From the NCBI GenBank assembly GCA_051883395.1, contig JBJETQ010000022.1, positions 2,305 to 66,304 on the forward strand: a stretch of DNA of 64,000 nt, in the 5' to 3' direction. The position numbers were made by a program, and so were the translations under genes. Below are positions 9,554 to 38,479 of the stretch, piece after piece. Source of the stretch: Christensenellales bacterium. GTDB lineage: Bacteria > Bacillota > Clostridia > Christensenellales > UBA3700. The notes below the pieces were generated by a model, which was not told where the DNA came from, made no database searches, and saw nothing but the letters and a program-made list of their open reading frames with translations. Position 1 is the stretch's first letter. The number at the start of each line of letters is the position of its first letter.

Positions 9554-9896
9554 GGGGGTGTAACGGATTCGACAGGAGAAATGATGATTGTGTAAGCACG
9601 GCGAAGGCTCGGCTTCGTAAAAACGGAAATTAAATTTAAACGCTAATAATAACAAACAAATTGCCGTAGCTGCTTAATTGCTCGGCTGTCGTCCGAAGAA
9701 TCCACGACTTCGGAACGGCATCAGCTAGTGGAAAGTGCCTAAGGGAAGTGCCCGTACCCATAGGCGAGATCAGGGCTAGTTTGGCGACGATTTGGTAGCG
9801 TTGGCATCGTCAAAGACCAATCAACGCATACTAACCGTGTAGAAAGCGCAGTAGGAATTCTTTTGGACGCGGGTTCAACTCCCGCCATCTCCACCA
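9554..9896 (+). ncRNA. ssrA: tmRNA (SsrA)
   Basis: The 5' end GGGGGTGTAACGGATTCGACAGG and the 3' tRNA-like end GGACGCGGGTTCAACTCCCGCCATCTCCACCA are both present. The tag reading frame is 9642-9677: GCT AAT AAT AAC AAA CAA ATT GCC GTA GCT GCT TAA, giving ANNNKQIAVAA. Confidence 0.9.
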
Positions 9897-16195: not shown

Positions 16196-18116
16196 GAAAA
16201 AAATATCGGACAAGACGCAGTCCAACGCTATGCCAAAGGCGCAGTTTGACGTAAAGACCCTGACAAGACTGCTCAGTTATATGAAGGACTATAAGGGACA
16301 GCTGGTTTTTGTAGTTATCTGCATTTTGCTCAGCGCAATAGCTTCCGCCGCTTCGTCTTTGTTTTTGCAGTCGCTCATTGACGACTATATCGTACCGCTG
16401 CTTGGAGTGGATAACCCGGTATTCAGCAGTTTGCTCAAAGCTCTTGTGGTGATTGGAGTCATATATCTGGCAGGTGTGCTTTCTACGTTGTTTTACAACC
16501 GCATTATGGTTACCATTGCGCAAGGAACGCTCAAAAAAATAAGAGACGAGATGTTTGAGAAAATGCAAGGTCTGCCTATAAGGGCGTTTGATACCCGCAC
16601 TCACGGCGATATTATGAGCCTTTATACCAACGATACCGATACTCTGCGACAAATGATAGCTCAGTCAATGGCACAACTGATTTCGTCGATATTTACTATT
16701 GTGGCGGTATTCGTCTGCATGTTATATATCAGCGTGTGGCTGACTTTGGTTGCCGTTGCGGTGATGTTTGCAATATTGCAGATAGTAAAAATCATTACAG
16801 GGAAGATAGGCAATTATTTTGTAATGCAACAAAAGACGCTTGCCGACGTCAACGGCTACGTTGAAGAAATGGTAAACGGACAAAAAGTAGTCAAAGTTTT
16901 CTGCCACGAAACGCAGGCAAAAAATCAACTGGGAATAAGAAACACCGAGTGGGCAAAAAGTGCCGCAAGCGCAAACGGGTATGCAAATTCCATGATGCCT
17001 ATGATGAACGCTTTGGGCTACGTCCAGTACGTTATCATTGCGATATTGGGAGCGTATATGGCTATTTCCGGGGCGACAAACTTGTCTCTTACGGGCTGCG
17101 GCACGTTGTCGCTGGGCATGATAGCGTCGTTCCTTACCTTATCACGCAACTTTACCAATCCCGTATCGCAGATATCCAATCAGTTCAATTCGATTGTTAC
17201 CGCTCTTGCAGGTGCATCCCGTATATTTGCCTTTATGGACGAACAGCCTGAGACCGACGAAGGCTACGTTACTCTCGTCAACGCCATTGAACAGGACGGA
17301 ATATTGACGGAAACAAGCGAACGTACAGGAATATGGGCTTGGAAACACCCGCATCACGACGGCACCGTAACTTACACCAAGTTGAAAGGAGAAGTTGTCT
17401 TTGAAAACGTAGATTTTGGATACGTCGCAGACAAACAGGTGTTGTACGACGTTTCGTTGTACGCCAAACCGGGACAAAAAATTGCATTTGTGGGAGCTAC
17501 GGGCGCAGGCAAGACCACTATCACCAATCTTATCAACAGATTTTATGATATCGCCGACGGTAAAATCAGATATGACGGAATCAATATCAACAAAATCAAA
17601 AAGGCCGATTTGCGTCGTTCTTTGGGAGTGGTGCTGCAAGAAGTCAACCTGTTCACAGGGACGGTAATGGATAACTTGCGTTACGGCAATCCCGACGCCA
17701 GCGACGAAGATTGTATTGCCGCAGCTTGTCTTGCCAATGCCGACGGCTTTATAAGAATGTTGCCTGACGGATACAATACCGTTCTCAAAGGCGACGGAAG
17801 CGGCTTGTCGCAAGGACAGCGCCAGTTGCTTTCCATTGCACGTGCGGCAGTATCCAATCCGCCCGTTATGATACTTGACGAAGCTACGTCTTCCATCGAT
17901 ACCCGTACCGAAGCTTTGGTGCAGGACGGTATGGACAAATTGATGAAGGGCAGGACGGTTTTTGTCATAGCGCATCGCCTTTCCACAGTCCGCAATTCCG
18001 ACGTAATTATGGTACTTGACCACGGTAGAATTATAGAACGTGGCAATCACGAAGACCTTATTGCAAAGAAAGGAACGTATTATCAACTCTACACGGGAGC
18101 GTTTGAGTTGGAATAA
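16188..18116 (+). CDS. ABC transporter ATP-binding/permease protein (partner half-transporter)
   Basis: Walker A GATGAGKTT, signature LSQGQRQL, Walker B MILDEATSSID. ATG 16188 overlaps the upstream stop by 8 nt; the longer ORF from 16116 is unsupported. Confidence 0.9.
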   Translation: MSKKKISDKTQSNAMPKAQFDVKTLTRLLSYMKDYKGQLVFVVICILLSAIASAASSLFLQSLIDDYIVPLLGVDNPVFSSLLKALVVIGVIYLAGVLSTLFYNRIMVTIAQGTLKKIRDEMFEKMQGLPIRAFDTRTHGDIMSLYTNDTDTLRQMIAQSMAQLISSIFTIVAVFVCMLYISVWLTLVAVAVMFAILQIVKIITGKIGNYFVMQQKTLADVNGYVEEMVNGQKVVKVFCHETQAKNQLGIRNTEWAKSAASANGYANSMMPMMNALGYVQYVIIAILGAYMAISGATNLSLTGCGTLSLGMIASFLTLSRNFTNPVSQISNQFNSIVTALAGASRIFAFMDEQPETDEGYVTLVNAIEQDGILTETSERTGIWAWKHPHHDGTVTYTKLKGEVVFENVDFGYVADKQVLYDVSLYAKPGQKIAFVGATGAGKTTITNLINRFYDIADGKIRYDGININKIKKADLRRSLGVVLQEVNLFTGTVMDNLRYGNPDASDEDCIAAACLANADGFIRMLPDGYNTVLKGDGSGLSQGQRQLLSIARAAVSNPPVMILDEATSSIDTRTEALVQDGMDKLMKGRTVFVIAHRLSTVRNSDVIMVLDHGRIIERGNHEDLIAKKGTYYQLYTGAFELE

Positions 18117-18287
18117 AGTAATGAAAAAGTTATTTTTTGATGAGAGAAGGGGGATTAAAGACTACGACCGACACAAGCAAGCAAAAAGTGCGAAAAGTCG
18201 ATACGTGTCGCAAAAAATGCATTATTATAAAAAACAAATGAAAATAATAAAATGTAATTTTGCAATATAAATATGATTTTTTTAGAT

Positions 18288-18316
18288 AAATGGAAGGGCT
18301 GATTTCCCTTCCATTT
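18288..18316 (+). terminator. hairpin terminator after the ABC operon
   Basis: AAATGGAAGGG-CTGATTT-CCCTTCCATTT is a perfect 11-bp stem with a short T-rich tail. Confidence 0.6.
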
Positions 18317-18495
18317 GTTAATTGAAATATTTCAGCAAGGGGCACGCTATACAATTTATAAGGCAAGTGCTTGAAAAATAAGAGTTTATAGCATTTATCA
18401 ATTAAATTTTGAAAATTTTTTGAAGATTTATTATTAAAAAATATTTAGTTATGTCAATTGACTATTTGAAACAGTTCTTTTTTTAAAATTAAGAC

Positions 18496-18529
18496 TTGAC
18501 AACAATGGTTGGATATATGATAATATAAT
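18496..18529 (+). promoter_or_regulatory. candidate promoter of the 15-gene operon
   Basis: TTGACA (18496-18501), a 17-nt spacer, then GATAAT (18519-18524), with an overlapping TATAAT at 18524-18529. It sits in a very A+T-rich 450-nt intergenic region. Confidence 0.4.
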
Positions 18530-18572
18530 CAACTATAATATACTAAAAGATTCACAGAAGGTATAGTGATTT

Positions 18573-27947: not shown

Positions 27948-28301
27948 ATGTGTTTTAAAAAATTTACAGAAAAGAGAAAATTGAAAAACTATAACAAGCA
28001 TGATGAAGAAATAAAAGAAAGCAATAGCGTTCTTCGTTCCAATTTTGCCAAGGTAAAAACTTTGTGCGGAATGACTCAATCAGATACAGTAAAGAGCAAA
28101 CTCAATGAAGTTGCCGATTTGTTAGAATATGCATCTCCGTCGACAAAAGGTGAGGTCGTAAAGGAAGATAACAAGATTTCTGACAGGCTTGATGACGTAA
28201 AAATTCTTATTGTTGGAGAGAAGGCAGAAGATAAAATTGTTGAAAAAATCAATGAAATCAGGATTATGGTTATTGAGAGAAATAATTTGACAGGTGTGTA
28301 A
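27948..28301 (+). CDS. operon gene 10: small charged helical protein, unknown family
   Basis: 117 aa with an AAGGAG RBS. Its stop lies 1 nt before the gene 11 start. Confidence 0.5.
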   Translation: MCFKKFTEKRKLKNYNKHDEEIKESNSVLRSNFAKVKTLCGMTQSDTVKSKLNEVADLLEYASPSTKGEVVKEDNKISDRLDDVKILIVGEKAEDKIVEKINEIRIMVIERNNLTGV

Positions 28302-28302
28302 A

Positions 28303-28908
28303 ATGTGGCCTTTTAACAAAAATAAGTTTGAAAAAATCAAGCGTAGCGACGTGGTTGACAGTATCATAAACATAGAGCGCAGGCAACAAGAAGAAATTGA
28401 TAACGTCGGGGAGCGAGAAAAAGAGATAGCGAAACTTTTGCAACAAGGAAAGGCTTGCAAAAGTCGTGATATGCAACTTGCGCTTGCCAAACGCATCAAT
28501 TTGCTTAAAAAAGAAAATAGCAACTCCGCTCAAAGAATTCAGTATCTTAACGCCAATTTGCAGGCGCTAAATCAGCTTAAAACGGCAATTGACGACAAAG
28601 ATTTTATTTCCAACAATTCGGATATACCAATCAACAAACTGTTGACCGATACGGCAGCTTTACAAAAATTTCTTGCCGGTGTAACCAACAAGAAGATGAA
28701 GGGAGAGAGCAAACTTTCTGCGGCGCTTGATACTTTTGATAATGTGGACGACGGCTATGAAGCTAACGAGCGCATTTATGGAGTAAGCGAACAGGACGAA
28801 CAACTTTTAAGTATGTTTGAAATGGAAAATTCTGAAGAAGACGCTTCGGTTTTTGGTGCGCCTGAGTACGAAAAAAATACACAAAGCATAGAAAAGGACA
28901 GCTTATAG
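28303..28908 (+). CDS. operon gene 11: ESCRT-III (Snf7 family)-like protein
   Basis: 201 aa. The N-terminus MWPFNKNKFEK resembles the yeast Snf7 N-terminal MWSSLFGW. It has a basic helical hairpin (IERRQQEEID..EKEIAKLLQQGKACKSRDMQLALAKRINLLKKE..RIQYLNANLQALNQLKTAI) and an acidic C-terminal tail. Confidence 0.7.
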   Translation: MWPFNKNKFEKIKRSDVVDSIINIERRQQEEIDNVGEREKEIAKLLQQGKACKSRDMQLALAKRINLLKKENSNSAQRIQYLNANLQALNQLKTAIDDKDFISNNSDIPINKLLTDTAALQKFLAGVTNKKMKGESKLSAALDTFDNVDDGYEANERIYGVSEQDEQLLSMFEMENSEEDASVFGAPEYEKNTQSIEKDSL

Positions 28909-28922
28909 TGAGGTAGCAAATA

Positions 28923-29516
28923 ATGGGAAGATTTTTCAAGACAAAAGAGGAAAAAGAACTCGAAAAAAGAATGCTCGTCAAAAAGACGATGCGAGATATT
29001 GAGAAACATATCGTAAAATTGCAAGCACAAAAGCAAAAAGCTGTAGAATCGGCAAAGCAAGCCAAGCTTCAAGGTTCGCCTCAACAGTATAGTCTTGCTG
29101 TCAGCTGTTTGAGAACAGCTCTTGCACAAGAAAAGAAAGCAAAAGAAATGTTGCTCAATTTCCAAAACACTTTGCAAATGCGTGATTTGAGCCAAATGAC
29201 AAGCGAGTTTTTGAAGGGAATGAGCATAGTGTCAAAAGAAATGCAAGCTATTACAAAAGATATGAATTTTGCAAAAGTTCAAAAGGAATTTGAAACGGCT
29301 ATGATGGGCATGGAGAATACCACGGATAATCTTGACGCAATGCTTGATTCTACCAACGATACTTTTTCTGCTATATCGTCTTCCAATATCAATATTGACG
29401 ACGCAGAAATCGAAGCGCTTATCGGCAATCAGGCAAGTGAATCTGAAAAGGAACTTGACAATGCCATAGACAAAAAACTCGACGAAATTTCAAAGTCGCT
29501 CAATGGAGCAAATTAA
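28923..29516 (+). CDS. operon gene 12: ESCRT-III (Snf7 family; CHMP2/CHMP3-like) protein with a C-terminal MIM1-like helix
   Basis: 197 aa. The N-terminus MGRFFKTKEEKELEKRM resembles CHMP3 MGLFGKTQEKPPKE. It is collinear with CHMP cores (MRDIEKHIVKLQAQKQKAVESAKQAKLQG ... LRTALAQEKKAKEML ... MTSEFLKGMSIVSKEM ... KVQKEFETAMMGME). The tail is ELDNAIDKKLDEISKSL. Confidence 0.8.
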   Translation: MGRFFKTKEEKELEKRMLVKKTMRDIEKHIVKLQAQKQKAVESAKQAKLQGSPQQYSLAVSCLRTALAQEKKAKEMLLNFQNTLQMRDLSQMTSEFLKGMSIVSKEMQAITKDMNFAKVQKEFETAMMGMENTTDNLDAMLDSTNDTFSAISSSNINIDDAEIEALIGNQASESEKELDNAIDKKLDEISKSLNGAN

Positions 29517-29525
29517 GGAGCAAAA

Positions 29526-31079
29526 ATGGCTGACGCTGATAAAAATGCTTTTATTTACGATACGTTTTTGATGTATTACGAGCATGCAAAAAAAGCACAA
29601 GAACGTGGCGATATTGCCGGAGCAAAAGAAAACTTGCTCCGTGCTGCGCAAGCATTGGTAAAACTTGCCAAGGAAGATAAGGGAGAACTGAAAAAAGCGA
29701 GATTTGATAGAGCAAATCGCCTTATAGAAATTGCCAACAGTCTGACTCCTAACAGCGTAGTTATCGGAGAAAATTCCAACGTTAAGCGCTCGTCAAATTC
29801 TAACAAATCTGATTCTGCCCGTTCTAACAATGCTTCAAAAAACGAAGATGAAGAAAAAATATGGCAGGCGTCTTCTATACCTGATGTCAAATTTAGCGAC
29901 GTGGCAGGTTTGGAAGACGTAAAAAACACTATAAGAATGAGAATGATAAATCCGGTCAAATATCCGGAAAAATACGCTGTTTACAATAAGAAAAGCGGCG
30001 GTGGAGTTTTGTTATACGGACCACCCGGCACTGGTAAGACAATGATTGCCAAAGCAATTGCCAATGAGGTCGGTGCAACGTTTTATGCAATCAAAGGCTC
30101 GGATATAGTAAGTAAGTGGGTAGGAGAGTCGGAAAAAAACATCAGCAGCCTATTTGAAACGGCTCGTAAGGACAAACTTGCAATAATTTTTGTCGATGAA
30201 ATGGATAGTTTGTTTGGTCAAAGGGGTGTGGACCCGCACAATGACAAACGTGTAAACGAGTTTTTGCAGCAAATTGACGGTTTTGTAGGGCGCAACCCTA
30301 ATCTTTTGTTACTGGGTGCGACAAACCGTCCGTGGGACGTCGATGGTGCGGCTGTGCGTTCCGGACGATTTAGCGAAAAAATTTATGTTCCGTTGCCTGA
30401 TGCACAAGCGAGAATGTACCTGTTGAAAAAACAACTTAAAAACATTCCTTTGGGCAGCGATGTTGATTTTGATAAAGTTGTTCAGATGACCAAAGGATAT
30501 TCGGGAGCGGATATCGATGAAGTATGTGATAGAGCCAAAGAAATACCGCTCAATAATTTTATAAAAAACAATATAGAAGAAAAAGTATGTATGAAACATA
30601 TCATAGGAGCAATAAAAAAGGTGAGACCTATGGTAAGTGCCGAGGAAATTGCTCGTTTTGAGGAATATGCGGGAGTAAGATATAAGGACTCTCCTGATGA
30701 AGAAGACGACATAGAATTCAATGACGAGACACAAAACGACGTCAATACAAATAACTCGTCGGTACAAAACGAAAGCTCGGAAGATGTAACAACTAAAAGG
30801 CAAGAAGCTCCAAAAATCATATTCGAGAAAACTCAAATAGATTTACAGCCAGGAGAAAATCCGACAATCCAATTCTATATTGACGGAGATTATGACAGAG
30901 TATATCTAGAATTGGACGGAGCCAATTACGTGTGTGAAAAATGTATACGCAACTGGAGCTGCGTTGTCAATGTACAGGAAGCAGGAGATTATGTTGCCAG
31001 GATTTTTGCTAAAGAGTTGCTGGGAGAAGAAAAATTGACGTTTTCAAAAGGTTTTGTAGAAAACGATATGGAGATTTGA
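29526..31079 (+). CDS. operon gene 13: Vps4-like AAA+ ATPase (N-terminal MIT domain, single AAA cassette, C-terminal helix, extra beta-rich C-terminal domain)
   Basis: MIT-like three-helix region at aa 1-78 (YYEHAKKAQERGDIAGAKENLLRAAQALVKLAKED ... RANRLIEIANSL). Walker A GPPGTGKT, pore loop SKWVGESEK, Walker B IIFVDEMD, sensor-1 GATNRPW. Arginine-finger region AVRSGRFSEKIYVPLPD resembles Vps4 RRFEKRIYIPLP. Followed by MVSAEEIARFEEYAG and about 125 additional aa. Confidence 0.8.
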   Translation: MADADKNAFIYDTFLMYYEHAKKAQERGDIAGAKENLLRAAQALVKLAKEDKGELKKARFDRANRLIEIANSLTPNSVVIGENSNVKRSSNSNKSDSARSNNASKNEDEEKIWQASSIPDVKFSDVAGLEDVKNTIRMRMINPVKYPEKYAVYNKKSGGGVLLYGPPGTGKTMIAKAIANEVGATFYAIKGSDIVSKWVGESEKNISSLFETARKDKLAIIFVDEMDSLFGQRGVDPHNDKRVNEFLQQIDGFVGRNPNLLLLGATNRPWDVDGAAVRSGRFSEKIYVPLPDAQARMYLLKKQLKNIPLGSDVDFDKVVQMTKGYSGADIDEVCDRAKEIPLNNFIKNNIEEKVCMKHIIGAIKKVRPMVSAEEIARFEEYAGVRYKDSPDEEDDIEFNDETQNDVNTNNSSVQNESSEDVTTKRQEAPKIIFEKTQIDLQPGENPTIQFYIDGDYDRVYLELDGANYVCEKCIRNWSCVVNVQEAGDYVARIFAKELLGEEKLTFSKGFVENDMEI

Positions 31080-31080
31080 T

Positions 31081-32583
31081 ATGGAAGAAAAGTTGAAACT
31101 ATACTTTGACGGTATGATTGTCAAAAAATCATCTATTCAGGGAGTTTTTTCTACTTTGAGCTTACCTGCGTTTATTAGAGACTGGTTTATAAAGAGATAT
31201 AGCGATAAAAACGGAGATATTAGCGTTGATTTTGTTACGGAAAAGATAAAGGATATTATTCCAAGAAAAAATGAGTGGAATGCAATTCTTGACAAAATAA
31301 TGACCGGTGAAAAGGCCAAATTTATGGCAAAAATCAACGTTTCATTTGACATAAAAACAGGGCGAGTAAATTTTGCGCTGCCAGACTTTGGTGTAACAAC
31401 CGATCAAACTTATATCAGCGCCACAGTATGGGAGACTTGCAAGAAGAGCCTGTTGCGTACTGATGGCGATATTTGGGGAATAATAGAATTGGGATATGGT
31501 ACGGTCCAAGTCAGCGCAAAAAAAGAGGAAGGAAGGATATTGCTGACTTCATTCAAAGACTTTTTGCCATATAGTATTGATATAAATTATTATAGAAACG
31601 CAAGAAAATATTTTGACTTGGATGAATGGATTGACTTGTTGCTTATGGCGATAGATTACAATCCGTCGGGCTATAACAGTCATGAAGAAAAAATTATGAT
31701 GTTGACCAGGCTTTTGCCGTTTGTAGAAAAGCGTCTTAATCTGATTGAACTTGCGCCAAAAGGTACTGGTAAGAGCTACGTCTTTTCCCAGATCAGTAAG
31801 AGAGGCTGGCTTTCCAGCGGTGGCGTAATGACGAGAGCAAAGTTACTATACGATATGAAAAGCAAACAGGAAGGTTTGGTAGCTAATTATGATTATGTTG
31901 CTCTAGATGAAGTCGGAACAATCAAATTTCCTGATGAGGCAGAAATGCAAGGGGCAATGAAAGGATACCTTGAAAGCGGCTCTTACACGGTTGGTGTAAA
32001 AGCAGGCAATGGTGACGCAGGAATTGTTCTTTTGGGCAATATTAAGTCAGAAATGATGAACGTCAACGTAAATATGTTTGAAAATTTGCCGGCAATATTT
32101 GGTGATTCTGCATTGATAGATCGCTTCCACGGTTTTATTGAAGGCTGGAAAATTCCGAGAATGAACGAGAATATGAAGGCCGACGGTTGGGCACTAAATA
32201 CGGAATATTTTGCAGAAATATTGCATGCATTCAGAGATGACGTTGTATCAAAAACATTGGTTGAAAATGTGCTAATCGTTCCAAAAGATGCAGACACCAG
32301 AGATACTACTGCCGTCAAGAAGATTATGACTGCCTTTACTAAGTTATTGTTCCCGCATTGGCAAAAGCCTCAGGACGTAGATTTTGAAAAGATGCAAAAA
32401 TATTGTCTTGACCCTGCAATGAAGATGAGAAATATTATCAAAAAGCAGTTGGCAATTATTGATGTTGAATATAGAAACAAACCAATGGCAGATTATAGAT
32501 TGATCGGGTATAATCAAACTCCGCCTGATGATCCAAGCGACAAAGATAGTTTAAGCATCGAACAAGCATGTATAAATGAGTGA
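31081..32583 (+). CDS. operon gene 14: BrxL-like AAA+ ATPase (TIGR02688 / Lon-related ATPase family) lacking the Lon protease domain
   Basis: The N-terminus YFDGMIVKK ... SLPAFIRDWFIKRY, Walker A ELAPKGTGKSY and Walker B YVALDEVG followed by MQGAMKGYLESGSYTVG match my recollection of the BrxL N-terminal and ATPase regions. At 500 aa it is too short to include the C-terminal protease domain. Confidence 0.55.
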   Translation: MEEKLKLYFDGMIVKKSSIQGVFSTLSLPAFIRDWFIKRYSDKNGDISVDFVTEKIKDIIPRKNEWNAILDKIMTGEKAKFMAKINVSFDIKTGRVNFALPDFGVTTDQTYISATVWETCKKSLLRTDGDIWGIIELGYGTVQVSAKKEEGRILLTSFKDFLPYSIDINYYRNARKYFDLDEWIDLLLMAIDYNPSGYNSHEEKIMMLTRLLPFVEKRLNLIELAPKGTGKSYVFSQISKRGWLSSGGVMTRAKLLYDMKSKQEGLVANYDYVALDEVGTIKFPDEAEMQGAMKGYLESGSYTVGVKAGNGDAGIVLLGNIKSEMMNVNVNMFENLPAIFGDSALIDRFHGFIEGWKIPRMNENMKADGWALNTEYFAEILHAFRDDVVSKTLVENVLIVPKDADTRDTTAVKKIMTAFTKLLFPHWQKPQDVDFEKMQKYCLDPAMKMRNIIKKQLAIIDVEYRNKPMADYRLIGYNQTPPDDPSDKDSLSIEQACINE

Positions 32584-32600
32584 GTAAACAGGAGCGTCAA

Positions 32601-34820
32601 ATGAGTATAAAAATAAAAAGAAGAGTGGCAATATTTGGCATAATCGCATTACTGTTGGCAGTATTATGCGTAGGCGTTGCTTGCGATTCAAACGAATTCG
32701 AAAGAGATATTTTGCCTGAAAATAATAGCACTGGTGTTGAGGAAGAAAATAAAGTGCTAGAAGATGAATTGGAAAATTTGGCAATGCATCTTGATATGTC
32801 TTTAGGACTATTCAGAGTTCTTAAAGAGAACAATAGTATCCAATATTATACAGCAGTATTTATAGACAATCAAGGCGGTTTTGTTGTGCCAAAAGAAGCA
32901 ATAGAAAATTCTATTAGCGCTGAATTAAAAACTCAAAACAGAATTTATGAAAATAATAAAATTCATGTAATCAAAAACAATGAACAAAGTAATTTTGCCG
33001 TACTCAGTGTTGACGACATTGTTACCGAGGGATTACTTACGACAAAAGAAATAAGCAATAAGGTTTATGCTGTAGGATATAACAAAACTAGCAATAACTT
33101 TGAAAAAAAGGTAATAGAAGTTTATAATTTTGACAAGGTGATAATATCGGCTGAATCAAGCGATTTTCTTTATGGATGTGCATTAATAGATTCGTCAAGT
33201 AAAAAATTATATGGCGTATATTCTCCTGTTGAAGGAGTAGCAGCAAGTGCTGAAATTTTGATGGCTGAGCCAATTGAGGATCAGTTGAGCGGGACTAACA
33301 TATATTGGAGTTTGGCAGAGTATAATCGTTCCAAATATCCATGCAATGTGTCAATATATGACGGTGAGTCGTTAGTATATTCTTTCAGTAGCGGCGTGGT
33401 TTTTGGCACGGCTGTGGGAGATATCTTGGCACAAACACGACATGTACTTAATAATCCGGGTCATGCGCTTGTAGGTTTTTATGACGACGATAACAATCAT
33501 TACACTGACGTCTCCGACGATATAAGAGACGACGTGAATTTGCATACTATGTGGGTAGAGATTGACGTGCTAGAAGAGAACGTAAGGGGAACGGTGAATT
33601 TTGACGAAAGTAAAACCCATTATTTTGATACAGGTATCAGTGTCGTTGCAACAAACGCCCCAGGTTACGTTTTTGCAGGCTGGTATAACGGAATCTACTT
33701 GCTAGATTCGGCATTGAGTGCAAAGTTACCTGTACCACAATATAACGCCACCTTTAATGCTAAATGGGTGCAATTTAGCTATGAAACCAATAATGATGCA
33801 GCAGGAAACGTTGAGGCTACAAGTTCTTATAACAGTATAGGTGATAGCGTTGTGCTGAGAGCCATAGAAACTGATGAGACATATACTTGGTTGGGCTGGT
33901 ATAAGGGCGGCGAAAAGGTTTCTGATTCGTATATATATACTATGACGATCGGAGAAGAAGATGCTCTTTACACGGCAACTTGGGAGAGCTATACGTTGAA
34001 TTTGTCGGCGGATGTGATTGGCAATAGCATTACGGTTAATTTTGACATCAACGATGAACAGGTCAGTGCAACGATGCCTTCTTCGCAGACGATATATACA
34101 GGTGAAAGTATATATTACGTCAAACCTACCGATATAGTTGGCAGATACCTGTTTGCAGGATGGTATAGTACGGCAGATTGCACAGGAGAACCGTTTGATT
34201 TTACCGCCGAGTTGAATAGCGACGTTACGCTCTATGCAAAATGGTGTGCATATAATGTCGATACTAGCAGCAATACATATTATTCAAGGCAAGTGGGCGA
34301 AACGGGAAACATATATGGTTATAGTAAAAATAGCAGTAGCGGAAACTACATAGCATTTGTTCCGTTGGTGAGTCAAAGCATAACTATTTATTCTTCGGGC
34401 AGTTGGGATACGTACGGCTATCTGTATAGCAGTAATATGAGCTTGCTCAGTTATAACGATGACGGTGGCATAAATAATAATTTTAGTATTACATATAGCG
34501 TGAAAGCAGGACAATTATATTATATCAAAGCGTGCGGGTATTCGTCATCAGGTACTATGGGCTTAACGATAACGGGTACTGCAACTCCTGCTGACGGAGG
34601 TAATGTAGTCGGTTTCAGCGGACCTTATTCCGGAAGAATTAAGGCAGGAACTGTATTCAATTTTAGAACCCATGCAACTAGCGGCGCCGGCGCTTATGTT
34701 TTCAATGGCTGGTATGTCAACGGAATCTTGCAAGATGCAGACTACGATGAATTTGAATTTGTAATGCCTTATCAAGATGCAAATATAGAAGTAAAATATA
34801 GAACCATGTCGATTTACTGA
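32601..34820 (+). CDS. operon gene 15: anchored surface protein with a degenerate trypsin-like domain, Listeria-Bacteroides (InlB B-type) repeats and a PPC-like domain
   Basis: N-terminal anchor or possible lipobox IFGIIALLLAVLCVGVAC. Repeats GYVFAGWY, YTWLGWY, GRYLFAGWY..DVTLYAKW and AYVFNGWY. SWDTYGYLYSSNMSLLSYNDDGG ... GQLYYIKACGYSSSGTMGLTITG is typical of pre-peptidase C-terminal domains. AGGAG RBS precedes ATG 32601. Confidence 0.65.
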   Translation: MSIKIKRRVAIFGIIALLLAVLCVGVACDSNEFERDILPENNSTGVEEENKVLEDELENLAMHLDMSLGLFRVLKENNSIQYYTAVFIDNQGGFVVPKEAIENSISAELKTQNRIYENNKIHVIKNNEQSNFAVLSVDDIVTEGLLTTKEISNKVYAVGYNKTSNNFEKKVIEVYNFDKVIISAESSDFLYGCALIDSSSKKLYGVYSPVEGVAASAEILMAEPIEDQLSGTNIYWSLAEYNRSKYPCNVSIYDGESLVYSFSSGVVFGTAVGDILAQTRHVLNNPGHALVGFYDDDNNHYTDVSDDIRDDVNLHTMWVEIDVLEENVRGTVNFDESKTHYFDTGISVVATNAPGYVFAGWYNGIYLLDSALSAKLPVPQYNATFNAKWVQFSYETNNDAAGNVEATSSYNSIGDSVVLRAIETDETYTWLGWYKGGEKVSDSYIYTMTIGEEDALYTATWESYTLNLSADVIGNSITVNFDINDEQVSATMPSSQTIYTGESIYYVKPTDIVGRYLFAGWYSTADCTGEPFDFTAELNSDVTLYAKWCAYNVDTSSNTYYSRQVGETGNIYGYSKNSSSGNYIAFVPLVSQSITIYSSGSWDTYGYLYSSNMSLLSYNDDGGINNNFSITYSVKAGQLYYIKACGYSSSGTMGLTITGTATPADGGNVVGFSGPYSGRIKAGTVFNFRTHATSGAGAYVFNGWYVNGILQDADYDEFEFVMPYQDANIEVKYRTMSIY

Positions 34821-34933
34821 TAGATATTTATTAAGTTATCAGTATATGTAAATAAGTAAATTGGGGGACTTGCCTGAGATTGTGGTATTGTACTGTACTT
34901 TAATAGGAGAGATATCATTGCAGTTAGCAAAGC

Positions 34934-35203
34934 TTATAGTATAAAAACAGCGTTCCATTTAGCTGTAAGGACGGCGTTGTCGTTGGTTATTGACCAACCT
35001 TTTAACATTTTGCCATTGCTATTGGTAATTTGCGTATTGCCTATATACCAACCGTCAAAAGTATAGTGAGACCTTGTAGGTACTACCAACGTCTTGGTCA
35101 AATTATATTGTATAGTCCCCAAAGCGTCTCCGCCGTTGACGGCATAACTTATATTATAAGAATTAAGTTGGTGTTGAAAATGCGTATAAGATATGATATA
35201 ATA
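34934..35203 (-). pseudogene. orphan fragment encoding a single Listeria-Bacteroides repeat (gene remnant)
   Basis: The minus-strand frame is open from 35203 and reads YNISYAVNGGDALGTIQYNLTKTLVVPTRSHYTFDGWYIGN ... AVLTAKW. There is no ATG, RBS or signal peptide, and it overlaps the promoter of the downstream plus-strand gene. Confidence 0.55.
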
Positions 35204-35208
35204 TTATA
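35174..35208 (+). promoter_or_regulatory. promoter of the rubrerythrin-fusion gene with an overlapping 12-nt palindrome
   Basis: TTGAAA (35174-35179), a 17-nt spacer ending in TGA, then TATAAT (35197-35202). TATAATATTATA (35197-35208) is a perfect palindrome resembling Fur/PerR-type boxes. Confidence 0.45.
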
Positions 35209-35231
35209 AAACCAAATTAAGGAGAAATTAT

Positions 35232-36407
35232 ATGAATAACAAGGCAATGTATAAATTGAGTTACGGACTGTTTGTCCTTACGGCAAAAGAAGGAGATAAG
35301 GACAACGGTTGTATCATCAACACGGCTATGCAGGCGGCGTCCGTACCCAATCAGGTAAGTATTTGCGTCAACAAAGCCAACTATACTCACGATATGATTG
35401 TCAATACGGGAGTGTTTACTGTGTCCGTCATCAGTCAAAAGGCTAAATTCGAATTATTCAAGCGTTTCGGCTTCCAATCGGGCAGGACAGTTGACAAATT
35501 CGACGGCTTTGACAAGTGCGTCAGGGGTAGCAACGGCTTGTTGTATATCAACGAAGGAACCAATGCTTACATATCGGTCAAGGTTGACAAAACCGTAGAT
35601 TTGGGTTCTCACACTATGTTTATCGGTGAAATTACCGATATGGAAGTGCTTGACGACAGTTCGTCTGCAACTTACGAGTATTATCTCAACAATATCAAGC
35701 CAAAGCCACAACCTGTCGGCGTAGCAGAGAACGGACAAACGGTATGGCGTTGTTCGATATGCGGATATGAATACGTAGGAGAAGAATTGCCTGCGGACTT
35801 TGTCTGCCCTATATGCAAACACCCTGCGTCTGACTTTGAAAAGATTGTAAAAGCCAAAGAAACCGCTTCTACCAACAAATATGCAGGCACTAAGACGGAG
35901 AAAAATCTGCACGAAGCCTTTTCGGGAGAGTCGCAGGCGAGAAACAAATACACGTTTTTTGCTTCGGTTGCTCAAAGAAACGGTTATGAACAGATTGCCG
36001 CTCTGTTCCTGAAAACAGCGGAAAACGAAAGAGAACACGCAAAACTGTGGTTCAACGAACTTGGCGGAATAGGCGATACCGCACAAAATCTCGAAAGTGC
36101 GGCTGACGGTGAAAACTACGAATGGACGGATATGTACGACGGCTTTGCAAAAACGGCAGATGAAGAAGGATTTACAGAACTTGCCGAAAAGTTCCGTAAA
36201 GTGGGAGCAATAGAGAAACGCCACGAGGAGCGCTATCGTGCGTTGCTCAAAAACGTGGAAACACGTGAAGTTTTTGCCAAGAGCGACGTCAAGGTATGGG
36301 AATGTCGTAACTGCGGACACGTTGTCGTAGGCACAAAAGCACCTGACGTTTGTGAAGTATGTTTCTATCCGCAAGCATATTTTGAAGTGAGTGAAGAAAA
36401 TTATTAA
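35232..36407 (+). CDS. flavin reductase-rubredoxin-rubrerythrin fusion protein
   Basis: aa 1-150 are flavin-reductase-like ([21 protein letters not shown]). Rubredoxin segment: [20 protein letters not shown]. Rubrerythrin di-iron helices: [18 protein letters not shown] and [11 protein letters not shown]-terminal rubredoxin-like centre: [15 protein letters not shown]. Confidence 0.85.
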
Positions 36408-36883: not shown

Positions 36884-38257
36884 TTATTCTACCTGATCGC
36901 AACAGTCAAAGTCGTTGTCGATATAGTGTGCGATAAATCTTGCTCTGAAACGGCGTGTATTGCATATTCCGTCAGGAGTACCGCTAACGTCAAGTTCTTC
37001 GGGTAGAACGAACTTGATACAACGCACTTTGATATCGGTACAGCTTTCTTTGGTGTGTGCAGGCACGACAAAAGTTTTGAGTCCACGCTTGTACTCTAAG
37101 TCGTTTTCGTCGAGTTCCGTTACTATTGCGGCGAGAGCAACACGTTTGTTTGGACATACCTTACGCAAAGTTACGTCGAGCTGCAAGACTCTGCCCATAG
37201 ATTCCATCATAAGGTCGCCTGCGTCTATCTCCACGCTGTCGTTGCAACCGCCGATAGATACTTCTACCGGCAAAGGGCAATCTTCGGGAGTTACTACGAC
37301 GTCGCAGTCAACGACGATGGATGGCGACGGAAATACAACTACGTTGCCTTCGTCGTCGGTATATTCTATCGAAGCGTCAACTTCTGTTTCGCCTTCACAT
37401 TCTCCAAGATGTTGTAGAGTAAAGGTAAAACTTGCGCCTTCGCTTTCGGTTTTTCCGAGCTCGTCAATCTTCCATTGTACCGTCGTGTCGTTGAGCATAA
37501 GTGCGCTGCCCTTGGTAGGAGAAGACACGCCTACCACTTTGAAACAGTCTGAGACAATGTCTTTGACAACGATGTCGGTTGCGCCGGGCTTAGAGATATT
37601 TTTTGCCAAATCTTCAAAGATGTCTTCGAGCTGACTGTCGTCGGGTGCTATTGCCACGTAGGCGGAGCTTGGCTGCGACGCCCACATTTTGAGAGCAGCT
37701 TCGTCTATGCCGCCGTCGCCTTCAAGACCTATGGCGTATATGATAACGCCTTGCGCTTTTGCCTGAGCGGCAACTACTGCCGGCATGCTGCCTACCGTCG
37801 TTACGCCGTCGGTAAACATGACCATAACTTTGGCATTGGTTGACGACATGTCAAACAGGTCGAGAGCTTTGGTAAAGGCGTCGGCATGATTGGTACTGCC
37901 GCCTGACGTCAGGGCGTCCACCGCCGCATTGAGAGTGGCTACCGAAGTAATCAGCCCCGTATCCTGTGTGGCTGTGGTGGCAAAACTTACTATGCCTATA
38001 TGACTGCCACCGCCGATATTGCCGTCCTGGCTACTGTCGGTGGACTGGTCAATGATTTCGATAAATTTTTTTGCTCCGAGTTTGAGATTGGCAAGCGGAC
38101 TGCCTTCCATACTGCCGGAGCGGTCTAATATAAGCACGATGTCGGTCGGATTGGATACGATATCGGGCTGAGCGGACAACGAAAGAGTTACGTCAAACGT
38201 GTCCTTGCAATTGATTTGTTTCTTAGAAATGGTTTTATTTGATGACGTTATTCCCAT
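36884..38257 (-). CDS. cytoplasmic vWA-domain protein with a Cys-rich C-terminal region
   Basis: MIDAS motif DIVLILDRSGSMEG, then GGSTN and MFTDG. No signal peptide. GGAAGGAGGA RBS precedes ATG 38257; the longer ORF to 38338 is unsupported. Confidence 0.75.
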   Translation of the reverse strand: MGITSSNKTISKKQINCKDTFDVTLSLSAQPDIVSNPTDIVLILDRSGSMEGSPLANLKLGAKKFIEIIDQSTDSSQDGNIGGGSHIGIVSFATTATQDTGLITSVATLNAAVDALTSGGSTNHADAFTKALDLFDMSSTNAKVMVMFTDGVTTVGSMPAVVAAQAKAQGVIIYAIGLEGDGGIDEAALKMWASQPSSAYVAIAPDDSQLEDIFEDLAKNISKPGATDIVVKDIVSDCFKVVGVSSPTKGSALMLNDTTVQWKIDELGKTESEGASFTFTLQHLGECEGETEVDASIEYTDDEGNVVVFPSPSIVVDCDVVVTPEDCPLPVEVSIGGCNDSVEIDAGDLMMESMGRVLQLDVTLRKVCPNKRVALAAIVTELDENDLEYKRGLKTFVVPAHTKESCTDIKVRCIKFVLPEELDVSGTPDGICNTRRFRARFIAHYIDNDFDCCDQVE

Positions 38258-38479
38258 ATATTTTCCTCCTTCCCCACGACATAATATGATACATTTTGTC
38301 GTCGGGTGAAAGGCGTGTTTCGGACAAGTTTGTTTCAAACAAAGCCTGTCCGTTTGCCGTTTTGGTTGCGACGCTTACAAAATACTTACAAAACTTTATC
38401 GATACGTTTACCAAACGGCGGCGATTTGATAACAAACGCCACGTATAATATAATCACAAAGGTCAAAAGGAGAAATAAA

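Follow-up and report, generated by a model that had tools for sequence, protein, structure and literature searches.

Can a bacterium encode Snf7-type ESCRT-III proteins together with an MIT-AAA ATPase, a combination that, according to recent reviews, is absent from bacteria? The question is raised by three consecutive genes (11, 12 and 13) in a 64,000-nucleotide stretch of a contig from a gut Christensenellales bacterium (hereinafter, the window), in which a sequence-only reading had recognized a complete Snf7-Snf7-Vps4 cassette. We found no description of this Clostridia module in the searchable literature.

Organization and conservation of the locus

Genes 11 to 13 are real, tightly packed open reading frames (Table 1), and the set of features that they present goes far beyond chance. 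The gaps between neighboring genes amount to 1 nt (g117 and gene 11), 14 nt (genes 11 and 12), 9 nt (genes 12 and 13, as originally noticed) and 1 nt (gene 13 and the BrxL-like gene), and ribosome-binding sites, GAGG and AAGGAG, are located upstream of genes 12 and 13.

Table 1. Features of the ESCRT-III-like locus and its immediate surroundings, in window coordinates
Feature	Position	Strand	Basis
Zn-ribbon + TPR + divergent TIR-like domain protein, 448 aa	25616..26962	+	locus homologues
SPFH (Band_7_1) + C-terminal zinc-ribbon protein, YdjI-like architecture	26985..27917	+	Pfam
g117, small conserved protein	27948..28301	+	always between SPFH gene and gene 11
Gene 11, divergent ESCRT-III-like partner, 201 aa, start MWPFNKNKF	28303..28908	+	hhalign to gene 12 family, AF2 hairpin, adjacency
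Gene 12, Snf7-family ESCRT-III protein, 197 aa, start MGRFFKTKEEKE	28923..29516	+	Pfam Snf7, fold search, family conservation
Gene 12 C-terminal helix (res 180-196), candidate MIT-interacting motif	29460..29510	+	family conservation
Gene 13, predicted MIT-AAA ATPase, CdvC/Vps4-type architecture + extra C-terminal domain, 517 aa	29526..31079	+	Pfam, NCBIfam, adjacency
Gene 13 N-terminal helical domain, assigned MIT (res 6-72)	29541..29741	+	orthologue Pfam MIT, profile vs PDB
Gene 13 AAA cassette (res 116-385)	29871..30680	+	family conservation, p97 D2 alignment
Gene 13 extra C-terminal domain (res ~425-517)	30798..31076	+	family alignment, length classes
BrxL-like ATPase without Lon protease domain	31081..32583	+	Pfam BrxL_N + BrxL_ATPase

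The gene 12 family comprises 582 bacterial cluster representatives and is found in at least 139 species-representative genomes, with the gene order of the module stable across at least 139 species. Gene associations were counted in 80 fetched loci from species-level genomes, mostly those of Christensenellales and other Clostridia, along with Izemoplasmatales. Gene 11 adjoins gene 12 in 78 of the 80 loci, gene 13 homologues accompany both genes in 75 to 77, and the adjacency of all three holds, overall, in 75 to 78 of the 80 species genomes. Conservation at the scale of an order-level clade makes the initial designation of the module as an accessory operon doubtful. The proposed cassette is present and conserved, but the sequence-only reading missed the larger module to which it belongs, with its SPFH protein, g117 and TIR proteins; the conserved core order is SPFH-g117-g11-g12-g13.

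The SPFH gene, found in 67 to 70 of the 80 loci, encodes a Band-7 domain (Pfam Band_7_1, 2.2e-25) followed by a zinc ribbon (Zn_Ribbon_1), with no predicted transmembrane segment; the same architecture is listed for the PspA operon of Bacillus subtilis in Table S3 of PMC11237479. Homologues of g117 were detected with phmmer in 61/80 loci; this protein matches no family in Pfam or NCBIfam, and profile comparison revealed no similarity with either gene 11 or gene 12. The Zn-ribbon-TPR-TIR proteins are represented in 44 to 45 of the 80 loci, often by two or three copies each. Pfam TIR_2 matches the N-terminal module in 26 of the 30 members (best 2.3e-14), with no match to Pfam TIR in the window protein. 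The relatives often possess variable C-termini containing LRR_5, Flg_new and GLUG surface repeats and transmembrane segments, and that of the window protein is weakly ESAT-6-like. Other members of the gene 12 family show direct fusions of the Snf7-like domain with P-loop ATPases, and some of these involve RuvB-like ATPases with NERD or TnsA-like nuclease domains. Coupling of the components is supported by the fusions, the adjacency of genes 11 to 13 and the recurrent presence of the SPFH-zinc ribbon gene.

Gene 12 and its divergent partner

Comparisons at the level of the family support the classification of gene 12 as a Snf7-family ESCRT-III protein. The window protein matches Pfam Snf7 (PF03357) with 21.4 bits (E-value 2.2e-4), under the 27.3-bit cutoff, and, of 42 members of the family, 19 are recognized by this profile at E≤0.01, the lowest E-value being 2.8e-8; many homologues carry precomputed PF03357 annotation. 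The PspA_IM30 profile (PF04012) matched neither gene 11 nor gene 12 at E≤1, none of the 42 gene 12 family members at E≤0.01, and none of 24 gene 11 family members at E≤0.1. Thus, the outcome that had been considered adverse to the original proposal, namely, matches to PspA/Vipp1 or unrelated coiled coils only, did not materialize for gene 12.

The protein bears the motif MG(L/R)F.K..EK at its N-terminus, continues with an alpha1-alpha2 hairpin that is basic, and has a C-terminal half that is acidic and closes with a conserved amphipathic helix; the mean charge in the family is +9.6 over residues 1-110 and -13.1 over the remainder, so that the basic hairpin and acidic tail of the ESCRT-III layout described from the sequence are both in place. 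The collinearity with CHMP3/Vps24 that had first been proposed was recovered in a sequence search of the PDB, where CHMP2A and CHMP3 were the sole, collinear though weak, matches; the family profile did not reach CHMPs significantly. In the AF2 model (pLDDT 72), helices span residues 8-50, 53-111, 114-153 and 160-196. The suggested comparison of this model with CHMP structures, performed with Foldseek, placed CdvB (E 0.04, prob 0.99) first, along with CHMP2A (prob 0.99, TMt 0.65), below significance, with no match at E≤0.001 and with BAR domains interleaved among the matches. The terminal helix shows the consensus I-D-K-E-L-E-E-L-(R/K)-K-K-I, in which I182 is conserved at 98%, K191 at 100% and D183 at 83%. 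Read by eye, this helix resembles MIM1 and is a candidate for such a motif, with a spacing that differs from that of the MIM1 consensus.

In gene 11, for which the same ESCRT-III layout had been claimed, the MWPF.KNKF motif at the N-terminus is followed by a helical hairpin; the tail is acidic, IYG...DD.LL.MFE is a further conserved motif, and the family mean charges are +5.1 over residues 1-110 and -12.1 over the remainder. The hairpin (residues 14-51 and 55-105) is modelled by AF2 with pLDDT of about 90. No match was found among Pfam families or PDB sequences; in the Foldseek search, approximately 22 of the best 50 matches, with Vipp1 ranking first, are ESCRT-III superfamily members, all at a non-significant E≥0.2. 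A comparison of shallow profiles of genes 11 and 12 was negative, and hhalign of gene 11 against the deep gene 12 family yielded a probability of 66% over 158-182 collinear columns (P 6e-5 local, 7e-6 global), compared to 0.1% for the reversed profile, at most 8.2% for shuffles and at most 0.6% for other helical families of the locus. These observations indirectly support gene 11 as a remote, very divergent collinear paralogue of gene 12. The hairpin, the charge asymmetry and a remote paralogy to gene 12 speak for the layout claimed for gene 11, and a family match or a significant fold match did not emerge.

The ATPase encoded by gene 13

The gene 13 protein is built like archaeal CdvC, from an MIT domain, a linker, one classical AAA cassette and a C-terminal helix. 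The MIT-like N-terminus perceived in the original analysis is upheld by the relatives of this protein. Pfam MIT (cutoff 30) gave no match in the window protein; among orthologues, P0195 scores above the cutoff, at 31.4 bits, and P0211 scores 27.8 bits, and about 10 homologues have precomputed PF04212 annotation. The N-terminal profile of the family, compared with the PDB, retrieved 2mpk first (E 0.003) and 2w2u next (E 0.02), both of which we take to be MIT domains, the latter from crenarchaeal Vps4/CdvC. The other elements that had been read from the sequence, namely, a Ser/Asn-rich linker (residues ~73-115), pore loop 1 SKWVGESEK (196-204) and RFSEKIYVPLP (281-291), were all located. The cassette further includes Walker A (GPPGTGKT), Walker B (DEMD), the SRH arginines R278 and R281, the lid and the C-terminal helix; Walker A and B, the pore loop and the arginines are conserved in the family, with little or no variation in the catalytic motifs of its single-AAA members. 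The KW.GESEK pore loop is of the same type as in Vps4.

The Vps4-like C-terminal helix reported originally is matched by Pfam Vps4_C with 21.7 bits, a small margin over the cutoff of 21.3, next to AAA (138.5 bits) and AAA_lid_3, and PF09336 is precomputed for many homologues; p97 D2 aligns across this helix too. However, the protein continues for about 130 aa beyond the helix, into an extra conserved domain that had gone unmentioned. This domain, which has no Pfam family match, is present in forms of 480-530 aa and missing from the commoner forms of 370-390 aa. Elsewhere, ATPase variants of ~700 aa contain an additional SpoVK/EccA-like domain.

With respect to the AAA clade, NCBIfam profiles score the window protein at 233 bits for CDC48 and 214 bits for CdvC; across orthologues, the ranges are 222-243 and 209-227 bits, respectively, all far under the cutoffs, and CdvC ranks first for P0211 only among the orthologues scored. 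For the short orthologues, the alignment with the CdvC profile (370 positions) extends from end to end. In the PDB, a chain of p97 D2 only reaches 201.7 bits, and the best 60 matches include none that is named Vps4 or CdvC; the lid and helix are closest to those of Cdc48/VAT D2, with katanin coming after. This region of about 90 aa aligns with both p97 D2 and the 370-position CdvC profile without insertion, that is, without the VPS4 beta domain (Vta1 binding). Crenarchaeal CdvC is likewise not known to have a beta domain. Against Cdc48 D2, the AAA domain reaches scores equal to or higher than those against CdvC; it may therefore be a Cdc48-derived unfoldase that gained an MIT domain rather than a member of the Vps4 clade. 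Accordingly, of the Vps4-like assignment made previously, the CdvC/Vps4-type architecture stands, and the clade does not follow from profile scores, Cdc48 D2 being equal or better. A grouping with SpoVK or CbbX, which would have spoken against that assignment, was not found: neither is among the 25 matches listed for the window protein, and EccA scores 37 bits.

Predicted function and relationship to known systems

We consider it likely that the locus encodes a bacterial ESCRT-III/Vps4-like membrane-remodelling module with a predicted ATP-recycled polymer. The two subunits would co-polymerize on the inner face of the membrane, to which their N-termini, short and aromatic-basic, and their basic hairpins would attach them, and the SPFH protein could recruit or organize the polymer in the way that YdjI acts on PspA. 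The hexameric gene 13 ATPase would capture the C-terminal amphipathic helix of gene 12 via its MIT domain and thread the subunit through the SKWVGESEK-lined pore, so that ATP would drive polymer turnover and remodelling. In the cell, the module could serve to repair the membrane, to bud off vesicles, to sort the TIR membrane proteins, in septum-related work or in conflict. Counting against the proposed reading, the TIR proteins, nuclease fusions and occasional BrxL lean towards a conflict role over housekeeping remodelling.

An unlikely alternative is an envelope-stress module of the PspA type, in which PspA/Vipp1-like proteins protect or repair the membrane, a YdjI-like protein recruits them, and a Cdc48-like unfoldase regulates the process incidentally. 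The SPFH-zinc ribbon partner has the architecture of B. subtilis YdjI (PMC11188069), and Ravi et al. (PMC11237479) report PspA beside classical AAA proteins in a Clostridium; Vipp1 as the top fold match of gene 11 and the proximity of the gene 13 AAA to Cdc48 D2 and VAT point the same way. However, PspA_IM30 is matched by neither subunit family and Snf7 is matched by nearly half of the gene 12 relatives, the fold of gene 12 matches CdvB and CHMP2A rather than PspA, and gene 13 combines an MIT domain with the end-to-end CdvC alignment. We know of no PspA system with MIT-dependent, ATP-driven disassembly. The membrane-repair part of this alternative overlaps with the remodelling module that we favor.

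We similarly assign a low probability to an anti-phage or inter-bacterial conflict system in which the TIR proteins would be sensors or signalling components, and the ESCRT-III-like polymer, together with its ATPase, would act either as a membrane-directed effector or in self-protection and repair. Such a role would fit the co-conserved, often multiple and variable Zn-ribbon-TPR-TIR proteins, the nuclease-bearing RuvB-like fusions, the BrxL-like gene (TIGR02688, 424 bits; PADLOC BrxL, 643 bits) that adjoins the module in a minority of loci (10/80), and the GC content, which is reduced over 18-36 kb of the window. Nevertheless, PADLOC assigned no defence family to the core genes beyond generic AAA similarity, the gene 12 family is absent from the phage, plasmid and IMG/VR collections, the TIR-like domain in the window is too divergent for a Pfam TIR match, and the stable gene order is unlike that of typical patchy defence islands. 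Very improbable is an accessory role in the type VII-like secretion cluster located upstream in the window, with gene 13 acting like EccA and the helical proteins as chaperones or substrates, as could be surmised from the unbroken same-strand array that the window has in common with its closest relatives (EssC-like ATPase, five small helical ORFs, gene 13, BrxL), the ESAT-6-like C-terminus and the ~700 aa ATPase variants, given that gene 12 is of the Snf7 family rather than WXG100, and EssC and the small ORFs flank the module in only 2/80 loci plus the P0035 clade, with SPFH-g117-g11-g12-g13 retained without them. The type VII-like and BrxL neighbors are not conserved partners.

Among known systems, the membrane-remodelling module shares with bacterial PspA/Vipp1 and its partners YdjI (B. 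subtilis ydjFGHI) or PspF the ESCRT-III superfamily, the bacterial host and a likely membrane-maintenance role; its SPFH-zinc ribbon partner parallels PspA-YdjI (PMC11188069; PMC11237479, supplement). The module differs in having two putative paralogous subunits that the PspA_IM30 profile does not match and a dedicated classical-clade MIT-AAA ATPase, whereas PspA has none or the sigma-54 activator PspF. Ravi et al. 2024 (PMC11237479) describe Snf7-clade proteins that occur sporadically in bacteria, in some cases together with AAA+ ATPases, and, for a few bacteria, MIT plus Vps4-like ATPases, interpreted as transfers from archaea. Unlike the proteins of the Clostridia module, those Snf7 examples have signal or transmembrane segments and occur with ABC transporters or PspA. 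In the MIT-Vps4 examples (Opitutus, Mycolicibacterium), Snf7 is missing, "displaced" by a TPR-6TM protein; the combination of a soluble Snf7-like pair with MIT-AAA, SPFH and TIR is not among the contexts accessible there.

With eukaryotic CHMP2/CHMP3 (Vps2/Vps24), gene 12 shares the MGLFGK..EK-type N-terminal motif, the basic core, the acidic tail and the terminal amphipathic helix at the MIM1 position, at an identity of about 15-20% and with E-values that are non-significant alone; unlike the eukaryotic VPS4 system, the module has no VPS4 beta domain, Vta1 or upstream ESCRT-0/I/II components. The archaeal Cdv and Asgard ESCRT-IIIA/B-Vps4 systems differ from the module, which resides in a bacterial (Bacillota) host, in that neither CdvA nor ESCRT-I/II wH proteins were seen with the latter, gene 11 has diverged much further than CdvB paralogues typically do, and the partners g117 and Zn-ribbon-TPR-TIR membrane proteins are new. 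Furthermore, unlike CdvC, the ATPase scores about 210-227 bits against an equivalog cutoff of 650, with Cdc48 D2 no worse, and the window protein has the extra C-terminal domain. The archaeal systems resemble the module in the presence of at least two ESCRT-III paralogues beside an MIT-linker-AAA ATPase that measures about 370 aa, has a C-terminal helix and lacks a beta domain, in the Snf7 Pfam match and in CdvB being the best fold match of gene 12, and some archaeal ESCRT loci also include SPFH and zinc-ribbon partners (Makarova et al., PMC11188069).

Organization and conservation of the module

The genes for a small conserved protein (g117), for the predicted ESCRT-III-like pair (gene 11 and gene 12) and for a predicted MIT-AAA ATPase (gene 13) form a run of tightly packed plus-strand ORFs at 27.9-31.1 kb, with intergenic gaps of 1, 14 and 9 nt in order from g117 to gene 13 and Shine-Dalgarno-like sequences upstream of gene 12 and gene 13. 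The sequence-only reading had claimed a Snf7-Snf7-Vps4 cassette in a bacterial accessory operon, and all the features it relied on (the N-termini, the pore loop SKWVGESEK, the RFSEKIYVPLP motif and the Ser/Asn-rich linker) are present. The gene 12 protein is identical to a recorded protein of a Christensenellales MAG (lineage Bacillota, Clostridia). A bacterial tmRNA gene lies upstream of a low-GC stretch (0.33-0.41 over window positions 18000-36000 vs 0.42-0.49 in most of the remaining window), and a separate ORF contains a von Willebrand factor A-like motif (DIVLILDRSGSMEG...).

Features of the window and presence of their homologues in the 80 species-level genome loci fetched for the gene 12 family
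Feature	Window position	Strand	Length	Loci with homologue
tmRNA gene	9554-9896
EssC-like ATPase and its small helical ORFs	18573-23684			2/80
Membrane protein, 3 TM + BspA-type LRR	23720-25564
Zn-ribbon/TPR protein (TIR-like)	25616-26962			44-45/80
Band_7_1 SPFH + zinc-ribbon protein	26985-27917			67-70/80
g117	27948-28301	+	117 aa	61/80
gene 11	28303-28908	+	201 aa	78/80
gene 12	28923-29516	+	197 aa	80/80
gene 13	29526-31079	+	517 aa	75-77/80
gene 13, extra C-terminal domain (res ~425-517)	30798-31076		~95 aa
BrxL-like ATPase	31081-32583			10/80
Membrane protein, N-terminal TM + Flg_new repeats	32580-34820
ORF with von Willebrand factor A-like motif	36884-38338	-	484 aa

The analysis shows the co-conservation of these genes and, at family level, the assignments of gene 12 and gene 13, with gene 11 a probable paralogue of gene 12; the full module extends beyond the three-gene cassette originally described. 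The usual gene order is SPFH, g117, gene 11, gene 12, none to two TIR proteins and the ATPase, sometimes followed by another TIR protein; in 78 of the 80 loci, gene 11 immediately precedes gene 12. The label 'accessory' for the proposed operon is doubtful, given the conservation of the module across an order-level clade. A single module locus, on a 7-kb contig, is labelled alphaproteobacterial (uncultured Acidiphilium sp.), which, given the size of the contig, is likely to reflect mis-binning; all others belong to Clostridia or Izemoplasmatales.

Members of the Zn-ribbon/TPR family have the first ~260 residues in common. Pfam TIR_2 matches were obtained for 26 of 30 members (best 2.3e-14) but not for the window copy, which is too divergent. 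The C-terminal parts in this family vary in length between zero and over 1000 aa and contain TM segments and repeats of the LRR_5, Flg_new or GLUG type; TM segments are predicted in none of gene 11, gene 12, gene 13 and the SPFH protein. A weak NCBIfam match, well under the cutoff, links residues 367-441 of the window Zn-ribbon/TPR protein to 'pore-forming ESAT-6 family protein' (19.8 bits, E 7e-4). The module is flanked by two membrane proteins whose repeats are of the same types as those fused to TIR in other genomes, which may mean that separate genes encode the parts of a receptor-like protein here.

The predicted ESCRT-III-like pair

Gene 12 is predicted, from profile matches and a structural model, to be a Snf7-family ESCRT-III protein. 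In Pfam, the window protein matches nearly the whole Snf7 domain below the cutoff (E 2.2e-4, 21.4 bits; cutoff 27.3), with no PspA-type match, whereas Snf7 is matched by 19 of the 42 relatives aligned (best E 2.8e-8) and PspA_IM30 by none of them, in line with the original assignment to the Snf7 type rather than to PspA/Vipp1; PF03357 is also precomputed on many homologues. A PDB sequence search with gene 12 retrieved CHMP2A and CHMP3 as the sole chains, in weak alignments that are collinear from the N-terminal MG.F.K motif on, and the family profile gave no significant ESCRT-III match among PDB sequences (a ClpC fragment came first at E 0.05, CHMP2A at E 2.1). The AlphaFold model (pLDDT 72) consists of helices 8-50, 53-111, 114-153 and 160-196, and structurally it comes closest to S. 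islandicus CdvB (prob 0.99) and CHMP2A (prob 0.99, TM 0.65 on target), none of the matches being statistically significant and BAR domains being interleaved among them.

The mean net charge in the family is +9.6 over the first 110 residues and -13.1 over the remainder, and the protein terminates in an amphipathic helix of strong conservation, IDKELEEL(R/K)KKI (I182 98%, K191 100%), which we take to occupy the position of MIM1 in CHMP1/2, making it a candidate motif of this kind. An exhaustive profile search yielded 582 cluster representatives at E <= 0.001; the best 150 of its matches are all family members and stop short of any border with archaeal or eukaryotic Snf7. An identity of the gene 11 and gene 12 products as WXG100/T7SS substrates was rejected, the gene 12 relatives matching Snf7.

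Several members of the gene 12 family bear their Snf7-like domain N-terminal to other motors. These are either RuvB-like AAA+ ATPases, some of which also have NERD or TnsA-like nuclease domains, or FtsK_alpha + FtsK_SpoIIIE translocases (homologues P0318, P0320, P0352, P0364, P0406, P0420; P0326, P0340, P0343); those with a named source come from Firmicutes/Clostridiales MAGs. We read these fusions as independent evidence that the Snf7-like domain would work physically with P-loop motors, possibly targeting them to membranes.

Remote profile similarity and the modelled structure make gene 11 a probable, highly divergent paralogue of gene 12. Alone and as a family, it had no match in Pfam, NCBIfam or PDB apart from spurious coiled-coil families such as Nup54. 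Profile comparison of gene 11 with gene 12 in hhalign was negative with shallow alignments (0.8% and 4.5%) and, among the gene 12 alignments tried, gave a signal only with that of 211 sequences: 66% probability, P 6e-5 in the local and 7e-6 in the global mode, and 158-182 columns aligned collinearly. The controls scored 0.1% for the reversed profile, at most 2.5% for 20 column shuffles, at most 8.2% for 20 block shuffles and at most 0.6% for other helical families of the locus. The gene 11 model contains a confident hairpin (14-51 / 55-105, pLDDT about 90) with more helices after it, and about 22 of its top 50 Foldseek matches (manual count, all E >= 0.2) fall within the ESCRT-III superfamily, including Vipp1, CHMP1B, CHMP2A/3, Shrub, Asgard ESCRT-IIIB and PspA. 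Charge asymmetry is found here too (+5.1 / -12.1), and the N-terminus is aromatic-basic. The claim that gene 11 is also an ESCRT-III protein is supported indirectly, through its probable remote paralogy to gene 12 and its modelled hairpin.

A PspA-type stress module would be favoured by the SPFH neighbour and the Vipp1 match of the gene 11 model and disfavoured by the matches of gene 12 relatives to Snf7 rather than PspA_IM30; we consider it unlikely.

The MIT-AAA ATPase

Gene 13 is predicted to be a MIT-AAA ATPase of CdvC-type build. Its Pfam matches are AAA (138.5 bits), AAA_lid_3 and Vps4_C (21.7 bits, cutoff 21.3). The N-terminal domain of the window protein is not recognized as MIT by Pfam on its own; it aligns with those of orthologues that score 31.4 and 27.8 bits to Pfam MIT (above and near the cutoff, respectively), and PF04212 is precomputed on about ten homologues. 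A profile of 26 N-termini retrieved 2mpk first (E 0.003) and 2w2u next (E 0.02) from PDB, which we take to be the MIT domains of a chitin synthase and of Sulfolobus Vps4/CdvC, respectively.

Conserved features of the family include Walker A/B, the pore loop and the SRH arginines. Most members are 370-390 aa long and match the NCBIfam CdvC profile end to end (for example, 6-379 vs 5-366 of 370). The window protein is one of the longer ATPases (480-530 aa), which alone carry an additional conserved domain at the C-terminus. This domain had no match in any library searched; a small, beta-rich fold is suggested by the conservation of Cys, Trp and Gly positions in it. A third form of ~700 aa, about a quarter of the ATPase orthologues (L009:10575-12668 and loci L013, L019, L026 and others), carries an inserted SpoVK/EccA/CbbX-like AAA (291 bits against SpoVK) between MIT and the classical AAA. 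The window gene 13 itself showed no SpoVK/CbbX grouping in the profile search.

The placement of gene 13 between Vps4/CdvC and Cdc48 is less clear-cut. NCBIfam scores of the gene 13 forms are 222-243 bits for CDC48 vs 209-227 bits for CdvC, both far below the cutoffs. A PDB search with full gene 13 retrieved a p97 D2-only chain at 201.7 bits, with no chain named Vps4 or CdvC among the top 60 matches, and the lid and helix alone matched Cdc48/VAT D2 best (38-48 bits) and katanin next (31 bits); p97 constructs saturate both lists, so that these bound the similarity to Vps4 from above only. The description of this protein as Vps4-like is backed by MIT in orthologues, AAA and Vps4_C, but the CdvC and CDC48 profiles fit about equally.

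Genomic context, possible function and relation to known systems

The BrxL-like ATPase (BrxL_N + BrxL_ATPase, PADLOC BrxL 643 bits, no Lon protease domain) starts 1 nt past the gene 13 stop. At the C-terminal end of many BrxL proteins lies the MIT_C domain that is found in MITD1, an ESCRT-III-binding protein (PMC12065111, 2025), a second and curious link between BrxL and ESCRT. The core genes belong to no known defence family in PADLOC and have no PHROGs assignment, and no gene 12 family member was found in phage, plasmid and IMG/VR collections. A conflict system, for which the BrxL-like neighbour and the TIR proteins could speak and against which these negative database results count, is considered unlikely.

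The EssC/FtsK-family ATPase (1175 aa), for which no TM segment is predicted, has a coiled-coil N-terminus and is followed, in type VII-secretion-like order, by five small helical ORFs (86-180 aa). This cluster adjoins the module only in the nearest relatives (loci L001, L002, L081/L082), the closely related P0035 loci carrying it too, with the same result in a neighbourhood recount without a coverage filter; that the module is an accessory of type VII secretion, as this arrangement might suggest, is highly improbable.

Tentatively, and with considerable doubt, we propose that a clade of gut Clostridia and some Izemoplasmatales run a genuine ESCRT machine, with an ESCRT-III heteropolymer, cycling by a CdvC/Vps4-type MIT-AAA, an SPFH scaffold and a functional tie to receptor-like membrane proteins (cytoplasmic TIR; extracellular LRR, Flg_new or GLUG), and that the polymer domain of related proteins recruits FtsK-like and RuvB-nuclease motors to membranes. 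By analogy with the ESCRT-III/Vps4 and PspA-YdjI models, the gene 11 and gene 12 subunits would co-polymerise on the membrane, the SPFH protein would recruit or organise the polymer, and the gene 13 MIT domain would dock on the terminal helix of gene 12, the ATPase then pulling subunits through its pore. Possible cellular roles include PspA-like repair, vesicle budding, sorting of TIR membrane proteins, septal functions and a role in conflict. The TIR-membrane-protein partners, together with the FtsK and RuvB-nuclease fusions, suggest that ESCRT-III-like polymers have bacterial uses not yet described.

The observation of a bacterial Snf7-type pair with a MIT-AAA ATPase is confirmed and its interpretation supported, with caveats on the ATPase phylogeny, gene 11 and the term 'accessory'. 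Full-text searches of the literature outside subscription journals turned up no account of this Clostridial module. Makarova et al. reported ESCRT components to be identifiable in archaea and not in bacteria (PMC11188069), bacteria apparently lack a Vps4-like ATPase according to a 2025 review (PMC7619361), and Liu et al. 2021 left open whether the bacterial ESCRT-III relatives have an equivalent ATPase. Ravi et al. 2024 describe sporadic bacterial Snf7-clade proteins with signal or TM segments next to transporters or PspA, as well as MIT + Vps4-like ATPases without Snf7 in a few bacteria, and propose ATP-dependent remodelling in general terms (PMC11237479). A Snf7-family subunit with a paralogue and a MIT-AAA in bacteria would provide a directly testable model for ATP-driven ESCRT-III dynamics, and is relevant to the time of origin of the ESCRT-III/Vps4 partnership or to its passage between domains. 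SPFH + zinc-ribbon proteins occur in some archaeal ESCRT loci (PMC11188069), and the SPFH link, seen there and with B. subtilis PspA, would gain a third, independent instance. If the module is a genuine ESCRT machine, ATP-driven ESCRT-III remodelling, whether in vesicle budding, receptor sorting or septal scission, would not be an archaeal-eukaryotic speciality.
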